Positions 4,716 through 41,813 of a stretch of DNA of 64,000 bases are shown piece by piece. Made by a program: the position numbers and the translations under genes. Below the pieces are notes generated by a model. The model saw only the letters and a list, made by a program, of their open reading frames with translations, made no database searches and was not told the DNA's origin. Each line of letters opens with the position of its first letter. Position 1 is the first letter of the stretch. This stretch comes from Sulfurimonas sp. (lineage in GTDB: Bacteria; Campylobacterota; Campylobacteria; Campylobacterales; Sulfurimonadaceae), in assembly GCF_028694895.1 (NCBI RefSeq), contig NZ_JAQVKA010000002.1:2963-66962 (forward strand), given 5' to 3'.

Positions 4716-5582
4716 TTGGTAGAGATTTTTAAATTATTTAGAGTCCATCAATATATAAAGAACCTTTTTATATTTATGCCACTGCTCTTTTCGTTCTCTT
4801 ACATGGACGCTCACGACAACATCTATACTCTTATAACATTTGTTCTTTTTTCTCTTCTAGCAAGTAGCGTTTATATCTTTAACGACCTTATGGATATAAA
4901 TGAAGATAGAGCCCATCCAACTAAAAAATATCGCCCAATTGCAAGTGGAGCAGTCTCAACAAAGAGAGCAAAATCACTTATATTAGTATTATCACTCACA
5001 TCTTTATCTCTATCGCTTGTACTTAGTTTTAAGCTTTTTATTGTTCTTTTAATCTACTTTATTTTAAATATTTCATACTCAACAAAACTAAAACATATTG
5101 CTATTTTAGATATATTTATAATCGCTACAGGCTTTGTTTTGAGACTCTTTGCGGGTTCTGTTGTAACAGACATAAACCTCTCTATGTGGATTATCCTTAT
5201 GACTTTTCTTCTTGCTATATTTTTAGCTTTAGCAAAAAGAAGAGATGACGTGCTCCTTTCCCTTGAGGGTCAAGAGACTAGAAAAAACATAGATGGATAT
5301 AACCTTGAGTTTGTAAATGCGGCTATGGTTCTTATGGCTGGTGTTGTGGTTGTTAGCTACATACAGTACACAATTTCTCCTGAGGTAATTGAGCGAATCG
5401 GAACAGAGTATCTCTATCTAACCTCATTTTTTGTAGTCCTTGGCATACTTAGATATATGCAGATAACTTTTGTAGAACAAGATAGCGGTAGTCCGAGTAA
5501 AATCGTAATAAAAGATACTTTTTTAAAAGTCACTATACTCTTTTGGCTCATTAGCTTTTTGGTAGTTACAAAACTTATATGA
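4716..5582 (+). CDS. UbiA-family polyprenyl-phosphate phosphoribosyltransferase (decaprenyl-phosphate 5-phosphoribosyltransferase-like)
   Basis: 288 aa polytopic membrane protein with a TTG start. The Asp-rich motif NDLMDINEDRAHPTKKYRPIASG is characteristic of the DPPR synthase (Rv3806c-type) branch of the UbiA family. Confidence 0.8.
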   Translation: MVEIFKLFRVHQYIKNLFIFMPLLFSFSYMDAHDNIYTLITFVLFSLLASSVYIFNDLMDINEDRAHPTKKYRPIASGAVSTKRAKSLILVLSLTSLSLSLVLSFKLFIVLLIYFILNISYSTKLKHIAILDIFIIATGFVLRLFAGSVVTDINLSMWIILMTFLLAIFLALAKRRDDVLLSLEGQETRKNIDGYNLEFVNAAMVLMAGVVVVSYIQYTISPEVIERIGTEYLYLTSFFVVLGILRYMQITFVEQDSGSPSKIVIKDTFLKVTILFWLISFLVVTKLI

Positions 5583-10035: not shown

Positions 10036-10049
10036 TTAAAAATCTAATG

Positions 10050-10066
10050 GGCTAATAACTTTAGCC
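10050..10066 (+). terminator. hairpin after the HAD gene (GGCTAA-taact-TTAGCC) followed by a T-rich tract
   Basis: 6-bp perfect stem 15 nt after the stop codon. The downstream sequence ttgttaatcttatttgttt is T-rich. Confidence 0.4.
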
Positions 10067-10302
10067 TTGTTAATCTTATTTGTTTAAGCTACATCGTGTT
10101 TGTTATGTAGTTTTTTCAACAATTAACAAACACTTTTGTATGTTATTTCTCCATATGACATTTAACACACACTAAATATTTAAGAATAATAAGTATATTT
10201 TCTCCTAAAGTTAAAAAATATTGTAATTTGTCATATTTTTCATCAAATTTTAATAATTAACACACATTTAACATGTAAGTTATTTTTATTTTTTTAAGTT
10301 GG

Positions 10303-10314
10303 TGTGTATATAAT
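10303..10314 (+). promoter_or_regulatory. promoter-like element (TGTGTATATAAT) 16 nt upstream of the first cassette boundary
   Basis: TATAAT at 10309-10314 preceded by TG repeats. It is the only obvious -10 box upstream of cassettes 1 and 2, and neither cassette has a comparable box of its own. Confidence 0.35.
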
Positions 10315-10342
10315 GTGTTTGAATAAATAGTTATGTGAAGGA

Positions 10343-10846
10343 ATGAATATGCATGAAGAAAAATCTGTACAAGAAATGATGTCTGCTTTAGGAATGGCTA
10401 CATTTCAGGCACAAGCACTTGAATATTCACTTGTTACATTGCATGCAGTTACAGTCCGAAAGAATGAAAAACCAGAAAAGAATATCATTCAAGATCTAAT
10501 GGATACGCGATACAAGCAAACCTTAGGACGACTGATAACAGATGCGTTTAAAACGCTTGATATACCTATTTCATTACAAGAAAAATTAAAAAATGCCTTA
10601 GAAAAAAGAAACTGGGTTACACATCACTTTTTTCGTAAATATGGTGCGATTGTATTTAATGTAGAGCTTCAAAAAAAAGTAACGCAAGAACTTATTGATA
10701 TTTGGTTATTTTTAGAAACTGTATGTGACGCCATACATGAATTGTCAGTACAAAGACTAAAAGATACTGGAAAGTCAGAAGTTGAAATCAATAAAGGCAT
10801 AGAAGAAGCAGTAAACAAGTATCTAAATGAATTAGCAAACACATAA
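10343..10846 (+). CDS. hypothetical protein, cassette 1; HEPN-like candidate (Rx4H motif)
   Basis: 167 aa with a sequence pattern that looks all-helical. R89-N-W-V-T-H94 (nt 10607-10624) fits the HEPN Rx4-6H catalytic motif and follows a TLGRLI...L...L helix pattern. GAAGGA ribosome-binding site. The ORF starts 7 nt after the cassette boundary box. Confidence 0.35.
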   Translation: MNMHEEKSVQEMMSALGMATFQAQALEYSLVTLHAVTVRKNEKPEKNIIQDLMDTRYKQTLGRLITDAFKTLDIPISLQEKLKNALEKRNWVTHHFFRKYGAIVFNVELQKKVTQELIDIWLFLETVCDAIHELSVQRLKDTGKSEVEINKGIEEAVNKYLNELANT

Positions 10847-10910
10847 CAAGTACGAGGAGACCAATAATTTACCCTAGCGGGAAAATTATTGCTCACGACA
10901 AACGTTGTAC
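10841..10910 (+). repeat. attC-like recombination site 1 (70 bp)
   Basis: ACATAAC-15 nt-AATAATTTACCC-TAGC-GGGAAAATTATT-13 nt-GTTGTAC. The 5' box overlaps the stop codon (10844-10846). The 12-bp apical stem has one A/A mismatch. The flanking arms pair only with bulges. Confidence 0.6.
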
Positions 10911-10927
10911 TATAAAAGGAACACTAA

Positions 10928-12328
10928 ATGATAAATAATTTTTATAGTGATATATTTCAAGTAAAACCTTCAGATTTAAAAACATATGATGTTTTCAATG
11001 GCTTTATCAATAAAGATTCACTTTATTATATAGTTCCTAGTGAACTTGAAAATATTCAAATAACAGAATTTAAAAAATCTTATTCTAAATACAAATTATT
11101 TTTTGAAAACATTATTAAGTTATTAGACAACTCAAATGGAAATGATAGGCTATATAGACAAGTTGAAAAATTATTTAGATTACATGAAGTAGGACATATA
11201 GGTTTGGGCTATTCAGAAAATAGCAAAAAAGGTTCTGGTATTGGTCCAAAATTAGCAGAAAAATTAACTCAGACTGCTTATGAACTTGTAAAAGTTGGAA
11301 TCAAAGATCCTGAAGTATTTCATTTGGTTGGATTACTTGAAGAAGGAATAGGTGCAGATAGAATTAGCGATATAACAGTTGCTATATTATTAGATGATTT
11401 TTTAACTTATACACAAAATGTATCTTTAAAATTAAAAATTAAAACGAATAAGTTCTCGTATAATAAAATTGACTATGCAATCCCTTTTTATCAAGATAAT
11501 CCAATAATATTTTGTCCAAAATCACTATTAACAGATTTACCAGTTGCTCTTGATTCAGAAGATATAAGTACTGTATGTTCTCATAATGAAGACTTACGAA
11601 ATAAAGCAAATCAGATTATTGCAGATGGTTTTTCCCAAGGCACGGTTAACTCTAAATTATATAAACAAAATTTAAAGTCACTCATACTTGCTAATCCTAA
11701 ACTTGTTCAAGAAGCTATAGCTACATATAAAGATAAAAGTACTTTTTATGATTTTGATAAAGACCCAAATGGAGATTTTATTTGGAAAGAGATAGCAGAA
11801 AATAGTATCAACAAGTATCCTTTACAGTTAGACAATAATAAAAAGCCTATTGAAATAGTAAATGATATATGTAATAAATTTCAAGATATGGTTGAAAATA
11901 ATGGACTTTGGAAGTTTTTTCATAATAGTGATGGGACACATAAAAATGAAACATTTTCACAATTACTATTTTTTGCAATAGCTCATTCATATTGCGAAAC
12001 TAATAACTTAGACTTAAGTCCAGAATCAGATGCAGGGAGAGGTCCTGTTGACTTTAAAATCAGCCAAGGCTTTAATGATAAAATAAATGTTGAAATTAAA
12101 CTTTCCACTAACAGATTATTGCATGGATTTCAAACTCAATTACCAATATATGATAAAGCAGAAAAAACTAATAAAAGTATTTTTTTAATTATTCAACTAT
12201 ACGATAGGCATGACAAGCAAATAAAAAAGGTGTTTGACTATAAAAATAAACATGAAACAGTAGATAAAAAACTTCCAAACATAGTAGTTATTGACGCTAC
12301 AAAAAAGATGTCAGCAAGTAAGTCGTAA
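10928..12328 (+). CDS. hypothetical protein, cassette 2; C-terminal RecB/Cas4-type PD-(D/E)xK nuclease domain, with an N-terminal region of about 330 aa of unknown function
   Basis: 466 aa. Ordered motif set: E341, GPVD375F, VE389-I-K391 and Q404-LPI-Y408 (nt 11948-12151). This is the nuclease core D...(D/E)xK...QxxxY. I recognise no family for the N-terminal two thirds. Confidence 0.5.
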   Translation: MINNFYSDIFQVKPSDLKTYDVFNGFINKDSLYYIVPSELENIQITEFKKSYSKYKLFFENIIKLLDNSNGNDRLYRQVEKLFRLHEVGHIGLGYSENSKKGSGIGPKLAEKLTQTAYELVKVGIKDPEVFHLVGLLEEGIGADRISDITVAILLDDFLTYTQNVSLKLKIKTNKFSYNKIDYAIPFYQDNPIIFCPKSLLTDLPVALDSEDISTVCSHNEDLRNKANQIIADGFSQGTVNSKLYKQNLKSLILANPKLVQEAIATYKDKSTFYDFDKDPNGDFIWKEIAENSINKYPLQLDNNKKPIEIVNDICNKFQDMVENNGLWKFFHNSDGTHKNETFSQLLFFAIAHSYCETNNLDLSPESDAGRGPVDFKISQGFNDKINVEIKLSTNRLLHGFQTQLPIYDKAEKTNKSIFLIIQLYDRHDKQIKKVFDYKNKHETVDKKLPNIVVIDATKKMSASKS

Positions 12329-12330
12329 AA

Positions 12331-12398
12331 GTACAACAAAACATAGTAGTCAATAAATTACCTAGCGGCAATTTATTGACTATATTCAAACGTTATAC
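12331..12398 (+). repeat. attC-like recombination site 2 (68 bp)
   Basis: GTACAAC-9 nt-TAGTCAATAAATTACC-TAGC-GGCAATTTATTGACTA-9 nt-GTTATAC. Starts 3 nt after the stop codon. Shares with site 1 the CC-TAGC-GG apex, the unpaired A next to the apex and the CAAACGTT(G/A)TAC 3' end. One stem pair covaries relative to site 1. Confidence 0.6.
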
Positions 12399-12412
12399 CC
12401 AAAAAATAAATA

Positions 12413-12421
12413 TGCTATAAT
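12413..12421 (+). promoter_or_regulatory. extended -10 promoter candidate (TGCTATAAT) internal to cassette 3
   Basis: Perfect TGnTATAAT 21 nt upstream of the antitoxin ATG. GGAAAG ribosome-binding site. Confidence 0.45.
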
Positions 12422-12441
12422 ACAAGAAAAAAGGAAAGTGC

Positions 12442-12630
12442 ATGGTAGCTGTAAAACAAGAAGCACAAGATATGATTCAAAATCTTCCTGACAACTGTAC
12501 ATATGAAGATATTCAGTATCATCTTTATGTTGTAGAAAAAATCAAAAATGGCATTAATCGTGCAGAAAATGGTGAAGTCTCATCTCATCAAGACGCAAAA
12601 GAAAGAATGGCTAAATGGCTATCAAACTAG
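12442..12630 (+). CDS. putative antitoxin, partner of the downstream RelE/ParE toxin
   Basis: 62 aa acidic protein. Overlaps the toxin ORF by 16 nt, which is the classic type II TA arrangement. Confidence 0.6.
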   Translation: MVAVKQEAQDMIQNLPDNCTYEDIQYHLYVVEKIKNGINRAENGEVSSHQDAKERMAKWLSN

Positions 12631-12926
12631 AGTGGTCAGAAGAAGCTCTTGAAGATATCGAATCTATTGCTATTTACATAGAAAAAGATTCGCCTGCGTA
12701 TGCAAAGTCCGTTGTTTCAAAGTTTTTTGAAAAAGCGGAGATTTTAAAAAAATTTTCTTCCCTTGGACGCAAAGTTCCTGAACTTAATGATAATAACATT
12801 CGTGAAATATTTGTTTATAGCTATAGACTGATTTACAAAATAGATGAAAATGCAGTTTTATTTGTAGCCATAATACATGGTAAAAGACTTCTTGAAAATC
12901 ACCAAAATATATCTAACAAAACATAG
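12615..12926 (+). CDS. type II toxin-antitoxin system RelE/ParE family toxin
   Basis: 103 aa. Typical ParE/RelE pattern: WSEEALEDIESIAIYIEKDSPAYA...GRKVPEL...IREIFVYSYRLIYKI...VLFVAIIHGKR. Confidence 0.8.
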   Translation: MAIKLEWSEEALEDIESIAIYIEKDSPAYAKSVVSKFFEKAEILKKFSSLGRKVPELNDNNIREIFVYSYRLIYKIDENAVLFVAIIHGKRLLENHQNISNKT

Positions 12927-12929
12927 CAG
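12911..12929 (+). repeat. remnant of attC-like site 3 (5' box and spacer only)
   Basis: ATCTAAC fits RYYYAAC. The following AAAACATAGCAG matches the corresponding part of site 2 (AAAACATAGTAG). The stem, apex and 3' box are missing, and the sequence runs straight into a truncated antitoxin gene. Confidence 0.45.
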
Positions 12930-12934
12930 CTGAT

Positions 12935-13150
12935 GTGTTGAAGCATATAAACGAAACACACCGACCGATGATAATCACACAAAATGGTGAAGCCAAGGCT
13001 GTTATCCAAGATCCAAAAAGTTATGAAGACATGAAAAATGCAATTTCTATTTTAAAGCTTCTTTCTTTTGCAGAAGAAGATATTAAAAACGGAAACCTTC
13101 ATGATGAAGAAGATGTCTTTAGTTCTGTAGAAGAACTACTTAAAAAATGA
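12935..13150 (+). pseudogene. Phd/YefM family antitoxin, N-terminally truncated (about 15-20 aa missing)
   Basis: 71 aa from a GTG codon. INETHRPMIITQNGEAKAVIQDPKSYEDM aligns with the middle of YefM/Phd proteins. The usual N-terminal beta-strand and helix are absent, and the break coincides with the attC remnant. Confidence 0.6.
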
Positions 13151-13371
13151 ATAAAACGTATAAACTTCAATGGACTATAAATGCAAAAAATGACCTTTTA
13201 AATATTGTTGATTACATTAAAAAAGATAGCCCTCATATAGCTAATGAGATTTATTTAAAAATTAGAGCTAAAGCCAAATCGAGCAATTTTTTCCCTTTAA
13301 AAAGTCGTATTGTACCTGAACTTCAAAAAGATAGTTATTGAGCATATCAAAAATATAGACTCATTTCGTAG
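13147..13371 (+). pseudogene. RelE/ParE family toxin remnant (premature stop, C-terminal part lost)
   Basis: The 64-aa ORF resembles the N-terminal 60% of the intact toxin at 12615 (KKDSPHIANEIY...SRIVPELQ). A TGA falls at 13339-13341. The same frame continues as AYQKYRLIS, which recalls the conserved YRLIY strand, and then hits TAG. Confidence 0.6.
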
Positions 13372-13420
13372 TGTAGATAACAAATCAAAAACGGGCTAAT
13401 CAAACTCTTTACATTTTTTT

Positions 13421-13428
13421 TGTATAAT
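13421..13428 (+). promoter_or_regulatory. extended -10 promoter candidate (TGTATAAT) for pyrD
   Basis: TGnTATAAT-like box 36 nt upstream of the pyrD ATG. AGAGG ribosome-binding site. Confidence 0.45.
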
Positions 13429-13463
13429 CACTAAATTTTTATAAAAGGTAAGAGGCAAAATAA

Positions 13464-40510: not shown

Positions 40511-40990
40511 TTAGGTATCTCTTCGTTTCTTTCCTTTGGCAACATCATCATGAATCAAAAAAAGAGCTAAATCATCTTTTAACTCATCACTTAACTTATC
40601 CCATATCTTTTTTTTGCGTTCATATCTTTTTGGATTCTCTTTTATACTTTTACTCAAATCTCGTATAAGATAGTGGTAACGAACTATGCTCTTGGTATAT
40701 GAGCCTACAAAGTACCAATTTTTAATAATCTGGTAGCTTCTCTCTTCATGATCTGTAAAACTATATTCATTAAATTTTATATCTTCTTCATCTTTTTTAA
40801 AAGCTGCATATGGTTTTCCTATGTCATGTAGTAATGCTGCAGTAAAAAACCTAAACTCTCTGGCTTTAATAACATTATATACAACACGAAGAGTGTGAAC
40901 TAAAACTCCGTGTTGATGCCATTTATTTTGTGTAAAAAGAAGAGATTTCCAAAAAGCTTTTGATATCAGATTGTTTTTTACTCTACTCAT
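40511..40990 (-). CDS. HD domain phosphohydrolase
   Basis: HD motif LLHDIGKP. I prefer the start at ATG 40990 (MSRVKNN...), which forms an ATGA overlap with the upstream recombinase stop. The ORF track extends to 41017. Confidence 0.6.
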
Positions 40991-41813
40991 ATGCTCTCTT
41001 TTGCCATTGGATGACAAACCTCCAATGTCTCTTTTAAATCTTGTTTTTGTATATGCGTATATATTTGCGTACTTAGAAGTGAAGAGTGTCCTAGTAACTC
41101 TTGAACAACTCTTAAATCTGCTCCACCAGCAATTAACGCTGTAGCGTATGAATGCCTAAGAACATGAGGAGAGACTCCTAGTATTTTTGAGTTATCTTAT
41201 ATGCAGATATTCTACTAAGCCTATCGCCCTTGTAGTTCTGCCAAACATACTCTTTTGTTTTATCGAGTTCATTAAGATAAGCGTCAACAGCTACTTTAGC
41301 GATAGAAGCGATTGGAACGATACGCTCTTTCTCGCCCTTTGCATGTCTTATATAAAGCCACTCACCCTCAATATCTTCTTTGCTTAATGCTAGACATTCA
41401 CTAATCCTTGCTCCTGTTGCATATAAAAAAATTATTATAGCATAGTCTCTAAGGCCTATAATTGTGCTTCTATCAATCAAAGATAGAGCATTTTGTATCT
41501 CTTGATATGAAAGAAACTTTGGAAGCAGTTTTGAGATTTTAGAAAATTTTAGTTTTTTCTTCTCATCTACAAATTGATTTTTATAACAAAAATCAAAAAA
41601 AGCGTTTACTGAGGATAGTTTTCTATTGAGAGTTCTTTTGTTTTTGTATTGGCTTAAAAGATTAAAAAGGGTTTTTGAATCTAATGAAATCAGCGGCTTA
41701 TTTAGAGATAATTCTATCTGTTCTAAATCACTTCTATAAGCATCAACGCTTCTCTTACTAAGAGCTTTTATAACGCTTATATACTCTATAAAAGCCTCTA
41801 ACTCGTTTGACAT
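40987..41813 (-). pseudogene. Xer-type tyrosine recombinase interrupted by a 1-nt frameshift
   Basis: The N-terminal ORF (41178-41813) has the SAM-like core-binding domain and the ATGARISE Arg. The catalytic C-terminus ([13 protein letters not shown]...[14 protein letters not shown]) continues in another frame down to the stop at 40987-40989. The two frames meet at a T5 run at 41184-41188 (A5 on the coding strand). Confidence 0.75.

Follow-up and report, generated by a model that had tools for sequence, protein, structure and literature searches.

The closest described relatives of the element reported here are the sedentary chromosomal integrons, the best point of comparison being the Vibrio cholerae superintegron with its V. 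cholerae repeats (VCR). The element lies in a stretch of 64,000 nucleotides of Sulfurimonas sp. (contig NZ_JAQVKA010000002.1), analysed as a whole and hereafter called the window, in which a block of 3.3 kb occupies the junction between a HAD hydrolase gene and pyrD and is very probably the remnant of a Sulfurimonas chromosomal integron. Like the Vibrio superintegron, it belongs to a chromosomal platform in which the integrase gene intI is divergent from the attachment site attI, its attC sites form a homogeneous and host-specific family, and its cassettes carry orphan genes (ORFans) as well as toxin-antitoxin genes. It also has in common with the superintegron the pattern of insertion at attI, with distal cassettes shared between relatives and proximal ones differing. 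It is set apart from the superintegron by the length of its attC sites (about 69 nt, versus about 130 nt for the VCR), by its tiny array of four cassettes and by the apparent deletion of intI. Unlike in sedentary chromosomal integrons, moreover, the platform is found at different loci among Sulfurimonas species, and the extrahelical base at bottom-strand position 16 of the attC sites is C, not G.

The block also resembles the clusters of attC sites lacking an integron integrase (CALIN) of Cury et al. 2016 (PMC4889954), which are defined by two or more attC sites spaced by less than 4 kb in the absence of a neighbouring intI and which have been proposed to arise by integrase loss (PMC4889954). 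Indeed, the window holds two complete sites 1.49 kb apart and a truncated one, with no intI gene in their vicinity. An earlier note, made on this DNA from its letters alone, had classed the array as a CALIN; the attC cluster stands, but it is not an orphan of obscure origin, since attI and the 3′ end of intI have been retained. The block goes beyond a typical CALIN in that its origin is visible, through attI, a 41-nt intI remnant and an intact intI at the orthologous locus L019 (L-numbers designate the comparison loci that we collected, e.g. L006, L013 and L019). The same note had held that integron cassettes are rarely described in Campylobacterota. They are scarcely described in the literature, and our literature search found no paper on this attC/attI family or on the HAD-pyrD platform, but NCBI annotates an 'integron integrase' in Sulfurimonas, Sulfurospirillum arcachonense and further genomes, and IntegronFinder has recorded an In0 and a CALIN in Sulfurimonas autotrophica and two CALINs in Sulfurovum sp. 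NBC37-1 (PMC10295459). The block shares its attC family, attI core and IntI family with the annotated integrons of Candidatus (Ca.) Sulfurimonas marisnigri (CP054493), Sulfurimonas sp. CVO (CP033720) and S. arcachonense. The annotated integrons of Sulfurimonas, Sulfurospirillum and Sulfurovum possess an intact intI and longer arrays, whereas the window appears to carry a deletion derivative. The array is therefore no new kind of gene-capture system; it is a fairly ordinary, clean example of a known one.

Two complete attC sites are present on the forward strand, attC1 (10841-10910, 70 nt) and attC2 (12331-12398, 68 nt), and their coordinates and sequence are exactly those read in the earlier note. 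The covariance model described below matches them with 88.4 bits (E = 4e-18) and 76.7 bits (E = 3e-15), respectively. In attC1, the R″ box ACATAAC is followed by the spacer AAGTA, by the L″ arm and stem with an extrahelical G at position 16 and AC at positions 20-21, by the apex TAGC, by the spacer ACAAAC and by the R′ box GTTGTAC. The corresponding parts of attC2 are the R″ box GTACAAC, the spacer AAAAC, ATA-G-TAG and a 10-bp stem, the apex TAGC, the spacer TCAAAC and the R′ box GTTATAC. The 'unpaired A' that had been noted beside the apex turned out to be mismatched rather than bulged, as A.A in site 1 and as A.C in site 2; the genuinely extrahelical base of both sites is the G at 5′-arm position 16. 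Two complete sites had been counted correctly, but a third, truncated one on the same strand (attC3, 12911-12929) had been missed. It reads ATCTAAC AAAAC ATA G CAG, matches positions 2-20 of the attC model and retains only the 5′ box, the spacer and the first helices. When attC1 and attC2 were folded, each strand gave z values of -4.4 to -6.5 relative to shuffled sequences, none of 200 shuffles folding as well. The apex motif CCTAGCGG occurs twice in the 64 kb, both times at the site apexes and with 0.22 occurrences expected, and the only exact matches to the 3′ consensus CAAACGTTRTAC are attC1 and attC2. Over the whole window the covariance model found no match beyond these two sites, and an Rfam scan returned nothing at gathering thresholds.

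Sites of the same kind occur in other Campylobacterota. One scan of 185,579 species-representative genomes with the pattern CCTAGCGG-N15-30-CAAACGTTRTAC returned matches in Sulfurimonas, Sulfurospirillum arcachonense, Arcobacter and two marine biofilm metagenome-assembled genomes (MAGs), along with matches in Rhizobium (L003) and Legionella (L010) that we rejected as chance occurrences within unrelated sequence. A profile and then a covariance model were built from 14 sites and searched in the collected loci, where they delimit an attC family of about 69 nt with 49 sites in Sulfurimonas, Sulfurospirillum and Arcobacter, every one of them in co-oriented arrays of 2 to 9, and the membership of the window sites in this family is supported. 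With MAFFT and RNAalifold the consensus of the 14 sites was poor (-1.76 kcal/mol), the 3′ arm being misaligned owing to indels, and hand and model-guided alignments were used instead. In these alignments, a box ending in AAC is followed by a 5-nt unpaired spacer, a 3-bp helix, the unpaired G16 and another 3-bp helix, and then by optional extra bases at positions 20-21, a stem of 9-10 bp, a mismatch, a CC(C)/GG(G) clamp and a short loop, the return arm closing with a 6-nt spacer and a 3′ box that begins with GTT. The 14 hand-aligned sites all have AAC and GTT, and these are kept in at least 46 of the 49 model matches, both window sites conforming. The spacers, 5 nt (AAnnn) opposite 6 nt (nCAAnC), are unpaired in all aligned sites, the unpaired G is present at top-strand position 16 in 48 of 49 sites, and about half of the sites have the extra bases at positions 20-21. 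All extrahelical bases lie on the arm with top-strand 5′-AAC, that is, the L″ arm. The apex is variable, site lengths ranging from 53 to 136 nt with the outer parts kept, which fits a variable terminal structure. Standard pairs fill 87.2% of the pair cells, whereas shuffles gave 70.1% and slid registers 33-46%. Covariation was seen in 16 of the 22 pairs, and compensatory double changes were counted in 152 cells versus 54.5 in shuffles, not one of 500 shuffles reaching as high a number.

This anatomy can be set beside the layout described for attC sites, in which an unpaired central spacer separates the R and L boxes and the L″ arm bears extrahelical bases from position 16 onwards (PMC5027507). 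With attCaadA7 in particular (PMC5027507), the family shares the RYYYAAC...GTTRRRY boxes, the unpaired central spacer of 5/6 nt, the L box, the extrahelical position 16 of the L″ arm, the variable terminal structure and the crossover at G|TT. It differs from attCaadA7 in having C instead of G at bottom-strand position 16, in a second extrahelical position at 20-21 rather than 23/24, and in a high sequence similarity within the family.

A further line of evidence comes from the cassette boundaries. If recombination occurs at G|TT, the six bases past the G of the preceding site are part of the following cassette and should complement the 5′ box of that cassette's own site. This had been remarked for the two boundary 7-mers of the window, GTTATGT (10330-10336) with ACATAAC (10841-10847) and GTTGTAC (10904-10910) with GTACAAC (12331-12337), and had been taken as a sign of recombination at G|TT. 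Both complementarities hold, and the rule extends to 36 adjacent pairs, 28 of which are perfect when the four variable nucleotides of GTTNNNN are compared with the next site's 5′ box. Shuffled pairings gave 3.4 matches on average and never more than 12 in 10,000 trials, and complementarity within a site was seen in 2 of 49 sites. The six attI junctions all obey the rule, including GTTATGT/ACATAAC of the window, and of the eight exceptions, two, which belong to L006, are accounted for by intervening cassettes without an open reading frame (ORF). Boundary complementarity marks recombination at G|TT.

Hairpins of this sort could also be read as repeats akin to repetitive extragenic palindromic (REP) elements or as terminators, the block then being an ordinary islet of toxin-antitoxin and accessory genes. 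The hairpins do stand directly behind stop codons, and the minus strand of attC2 scores as terminator-like, but on the coding strand no T-run follows the stem of the sites. The presence in arrays of all 49 copies found in the collected loci and the lack of additional copies in the 64 kb rule out a dispersed REP or terminator family; the copies are not scattered behind housekeeping genes, as the earlier note had allowed they might be, and three of the arrays elsewhere adjoin an intact integron integrase gene and attI. Since repeats would leave unaccounted for both the boundary rule and the exact G|TT borders that cassette 2 keeps in three contexts (see below), we regard such a reading as very improbable.

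The array had been taken to start at 10330, with no intI beside it. In fact the element begins at 10036, directly behind the HAD stop codon, where the minus strand of 10036-10076 carries the last 12 codons and stop of an intI gene (..INKAKVISPLDF*). By local alignment, 33-36 of about 40 positions of this remnant are identical to the reverse complement of the 3′ ends of intact intI genes (L019, L020 and L018). No IntI match was obtained in the 64 kb, in line with the earlier reading, but these 41 nt of the gene's 3′ end remain. On the forward strand, positions 10077-10336 correspond to the region that once extended from the intI start to attI and are a candidate for the Pint/Pc promoters; its last part is the attI core TTGAATAAATAG|TTATGT, in which position 10330 is the G of the crossover. 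The region could be aligned with the stretches between intI and attI in five other Sulfurimonas integrons, and in the six-way alignment the block AATAAATAGTT is invariant and the end is formed by the invariant core AATAAATAG|TT. The attI region of the window is 97.6% identical to that of L013, 87.4% to that of Sulfurimonas sp. CVO and 54% to that of L019. A TATAAT is conserved 12 nt ahead of the crossover, and promoter-like hexamers are found at 10162-10190 and 10228-10257. A 'CAT' at about 10095 was considered as a remnant of the intI start and rejected, since the six-way alignment puts the true start further left, in the deleted part. We also observed that the attI region is closer to that of sp. 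CVO, which lies at another locus (87% identity), than to that of L019 at the same locus (only 54%), and that a hairpin with GC (GGGCTAATAACTTTAGCCT) at 10049-10067, inside the intI remnant, is conserved in intact intI genes; this hairpin could terminate transcription in both directions between HAD and intI, which are convergent.

Intact integrase genes of the same lineage are numerous. A protein search returned more than 100 clusters of 322-amino-acid integron integrases at 72-83% identity; those that bear a name are called 'integron integrase' or 'integrase' and come from Sulfurimonas (including Ca. S. marisnigri and sp. CVO), Sulfurospirillum arcachonense and Sulfurovum. An intact intI for a protein of 322 amino acids is present in L018, L019 and L020 (10001-10969 in each), where the same attC family fills the attI side; the integrase of a complete integron is thus lacking in the window but found at these loci, one of which, L019, is the same locus. 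L019 belongs to the Sulfurimonas MAG GCA_026196735.1, in which the intact intI abuts HAD and the order intI-HAD-PMT_2-adh_short-FAD_binding_4-GtrA-UbiA is that of the window. From this synteny, the attI homology and the match to the intI 3′ end, it follows that about 0.94 kb of intI would have been lost by internal deletion, and the window appears to hold the same platform as L019 with its intI deleted. In L006, from Ca. Sulfurimonas kebritensis, an array with attC sites of this family has a divergent intI pseudogene upstream. Against the 'integron integrase' model TIGR02249 (cut-off 265), the fragments of the pseudogene reach 207.5 and 111.7 bits, and the IntI-specific insert is present.

The window does contain a gene for a tyrosine recombinase, and it could be asked whether the block was built by another site-specific recombinase, such as this Xer-like one, acting on the palindromes. 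However, the gene (40996-41813) has XerD as its best match (129 bits) and reaches only 38 bits with the integron integrase model. It is frameshifted and located 28 kb from the block, the insert typical of IntI is missing, and elsewhere the attC sites co-occur with true IntI genes, so that we find this explanation scarcely credible. A tblastn match to IntI1 at 40996-41172 falls in the same frameshifted XerD-like gene and was rejected as intI. As the only other recombinase gene of the window, the gene is on the minus strand, with a frameshift near 41175; its C-terminal catalytic part (HxxR...Y) is in another frame and continues into an HD-domain ORF at 40511-41017. The split gene is either a pseudogene or an assembly error.

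The integron origin that we favour would have unfolded as follows. An IntI gene originally tail-to-tail with the HAD gene would have encoded the integrase that inserted promoterless cassettes one at a time at attI, attI pairing with the folded bottom strand of the cassette's attC hairpin and the crossover falling at G|TT (10330/10331). With insertion at attI, the newest cassettes would lie nearest to it, and their expression would presumably have depended on a promoter located within the attI region. About 0.94 kb would then have been deleted, taking intI except for its last 12 codons and leaving the attI/promoter region and four cassettes in place, after which attC3 would have lost its 3′ part and cassette 4 (Phd-ParE) would have decayed by two deletions. 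In its present state the array would not be able to rearrange unless an integrase acted from elsewhere. The interpretation of the block as an integron-type cassette array, already advanced in the earlier note, finds support in the site family with its covarying stems, in its association with intI, in the retained attI region and intI 3′ end, in the boundary rule, in the recurrence of cassettes elsewhere and in the variation of the junction among relatives. Of the refuting outcomes named in that note, neither a hairpin family dispersed behind unrelated genes nor an invariant block at this junction was observed.

Several observations weigh against this origin. Cassette 3 violates the boundary rule, GTTATAC and ATCTAAC agreeing at two of the four variable positions. 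The bottom-strand base at position 16 is C, and no extrahelical T was seen at 23/24 in the aligned family sites, whereas bottom-strand extrahelical bases are usually G16 and T23/24 (PMC5027507); by that 'usually', the identity of these bases is a typical rather than a strictly defining feature of attC. The promoter-like matches in the attI region are no commoner than expected by chance. Finally, the intI of L006 has a stop codon and a frameshift and hence provides no functional evidence.

All ORFs of the array are co-directional, on the forward strand, with the HAD hydrolase gene and pyrD on its flanks. Cassettes 1 and 2 are intact, cassette 3 has a truncated attC and cassette 4 is decayed. 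Cassette 1 (10331-10904) consists of an ORF of 167 amino acids (10343-10846) of no known family and attC1, and its start TTATGT complements its own 5′ box ACATAAC. With only 15 relatives among 5.8 billion sequences, the protein comes close to being an ORFan. A homologue with 89% identity and the same attC type is found at another locus (L034), and a 56% homologue (L032, L033) has no family sites beside it. Cassette 2 (10905-12392) comprises an ORF of 466 amino acids (10928-12328) with DUF8370/DUF8371 and attC2; its start TTGTAC complements its own box GTACAAC, and its protein weakly matches the PADLOC phage-defence candidate PDC-M36A. The cassette recurs at 91-92% identity in L021 and L022, always beginning at G|TTGTAC. 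In L021 it stands behind another toxin-antitoxin cassette, and in L022 between a 201-amino-acid cassette and Phd-ParE, without cassette 3. Near its homologues at 60-64% identity (L023-L030), no family sites were detected with the profile, nor with the covariance model in L023 and L025. These homologues and the 56% homologue of cassette 1 lie outside this integron lineage. Cassette 2 thus recurs in two further arrays and cassette 1 at a separate locus, and the cassettes of the window appear, judging from these comparisons, to be mobile units.

Cassette 3 (12393-12929) holds an ORF of 62 amino acids (12442-12630), an overlapping ORF for a ParE/RelE toxin of 103 amino acids (12615-12926) and the truncated attC3. 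The toxin matches ParE_toxin (E = 1.3e-17) as well as RelE_StbE; the 62-amino-acid ORF, which matched no family, is a putative antitoxin by its position and overlap. The 5′ box ATCTAAC of this cassette falls within the ParE coding sequence. The decayed cassette 4 (12930-13358) carries a Phd/YefM ORF (12935-13150) without about 18 N-terminal codons and a truncated ParE (13147-13341) without its C-terminus, the Pfam matches being partial (profile positions 17-64 of 74 for Phd/YefM and 2-53 of 89 for ParE). The end of the array and the region upstream of pyrD (13359-13463, forward strand) are 96% identical to L013 13036-13141.

Comparison of the HAD-pyrD junction in related genomes, proposed in the earlier note as a check for cassette turnover, revealed a variable junction that may be empty or may contain one unrelated gene, other cassettes or a complete integron. 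It is empty in L016 (HAD 72% identical), where pyrD lies 63 nt past HAD, it contains a single Wzz gene and no attC sites in L015, and it is occupied in L019 by a complete integron with intI. In L013 (HAD 86% identical), the same intI remnant and attI are followed by different attI-proximal content, namely a 37-nt mini-cassette, an HNH cassette and a CxxCxxCC cassette, and then by an intact Phd(90)-ParE(109) cassette with 94% DNA identity to the decayed cassette 4 of the window. Insertion at attI predicts precisely such shared distal and differing proximal cassettes. Relative to L013, the window shows two deletions, which account for the loss of the 3′ part of attC3 and of the terminal attC: the first runs from the middle of attC3 into Phd codon ~19 (junction 12929/12930), and in the second, 19 nt (13340-13358) stand in place of 177 nt that encode the C-terminus of ParE and include the 5′ portion of the terminal attC. 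Integron segments of the window and L013 (10036-10336 and 12930-13463) are 94-98% identical, compared with 85-89% for the flanking genes, which suggests a more recent shared ancestry of these segments, or constraint.

The comparison loci also show that the platform itself differs in location among Sulfurimonas, being found at HAD-pyrD, at MurJ-cysS and beside CitMHS/LeuS (L018, L019, L020). Toxin-antitoxin genes lie between MurJ and cysS in L015 and L016 and may be decayed arrays. The mini-cassette at attI in L013 (10864-10905) reads GTTGTCT-15 nt-AGACAAC-GGGCGCGCGG-GTTGAAC, its attC being reduced to two boxes and 10 nt. In L034 (856-926), the cassette 1 homologue is alone beside a CBS-domain gene, the 3′ box of its attC is degenerate (GTC for GTT) and the upstream sequence is only loosely attI-like (AATAAATGCTTATAT); this cassette may have been inserted at a place that is not an integron. 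L006 has three copies (1732-1915, 2725-2905 and 5298-5480) of an ORF-less cassette of about 185 nt, made of TTGTAC, 19 nt, GTACAAC, a long GGCAGGGGCTGAGCTC...GAGCTCAGCCCCTGCC hairpin and GTTAxxx. Each copy directly follows an ordinary cassette and the boundary rule is obeyed; these cassettes might code for a small RNA or be selfish and empty.

The comparison with L013 bears on a last question, whether the array, though without an integrase of its own, could still be live, its attI and two intact attC sites being used in trans by an IntI from another platform. The window and L013 have the same intI deletion remnant and attI regions of 97.6% identity, yet their attI-proximal cassettes all differ and only the distal Phd-ParE is common to both; a shared deletion with differing proximal cassettes suggests that turnover continued after the integrase was lost. 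The position of cassette 2 straight before Phd-ParE in L022, without cassette 3, points the same way, as do the occurrence of intI at three or more different loci among Sulfurimonas genomes and the separate In0 and CALIN that IntegronFinder recognised in S. autotrophica (PMC10295459). On the other hand, the 64-kb window contains no intI, the array has decayed through a truncated attC3 and a deleted terminal cassette, and the higher identity of the integron segments (94-98%) than of the flanks (85-89%) would allow the differences to be explained by replacement of the locus through homologous recombination, without local integrase activity. We therefore hold a live array to be possible but rather unlikely. 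Slightly more doubtful still is a system of several platforms, in which an orphan attI would be served in trans and the recognition of this IntI clade would have changed in favour of attC sites with C, in place of the usual G, as first extrahelical base on the strand that recombines.

The cargo of the array, two ORFans, one of them weakly defence-like, and two toxin-antitoxin pairs of the ParE type, agrees with the view that chromosomal integrons serve as a reservoir of accessory and defence genes. The locus offers a base-by-base record of how a cluster of attC sites without an integrase would have arisen from a complete chromosomal integron by internal deletion of intI. It belongs to a coherent integron lineage, with an IntI of 322 amino acids, a conserved attI core and attC sites of about 69 nt, that is widespread in sulfur-oxidising Campylobacterota. 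Within this lineage, an intI deletion shared between arrays whose attI-proximal cassettes differ makes a testable case for the mobilisation of orphan arrays in trans.

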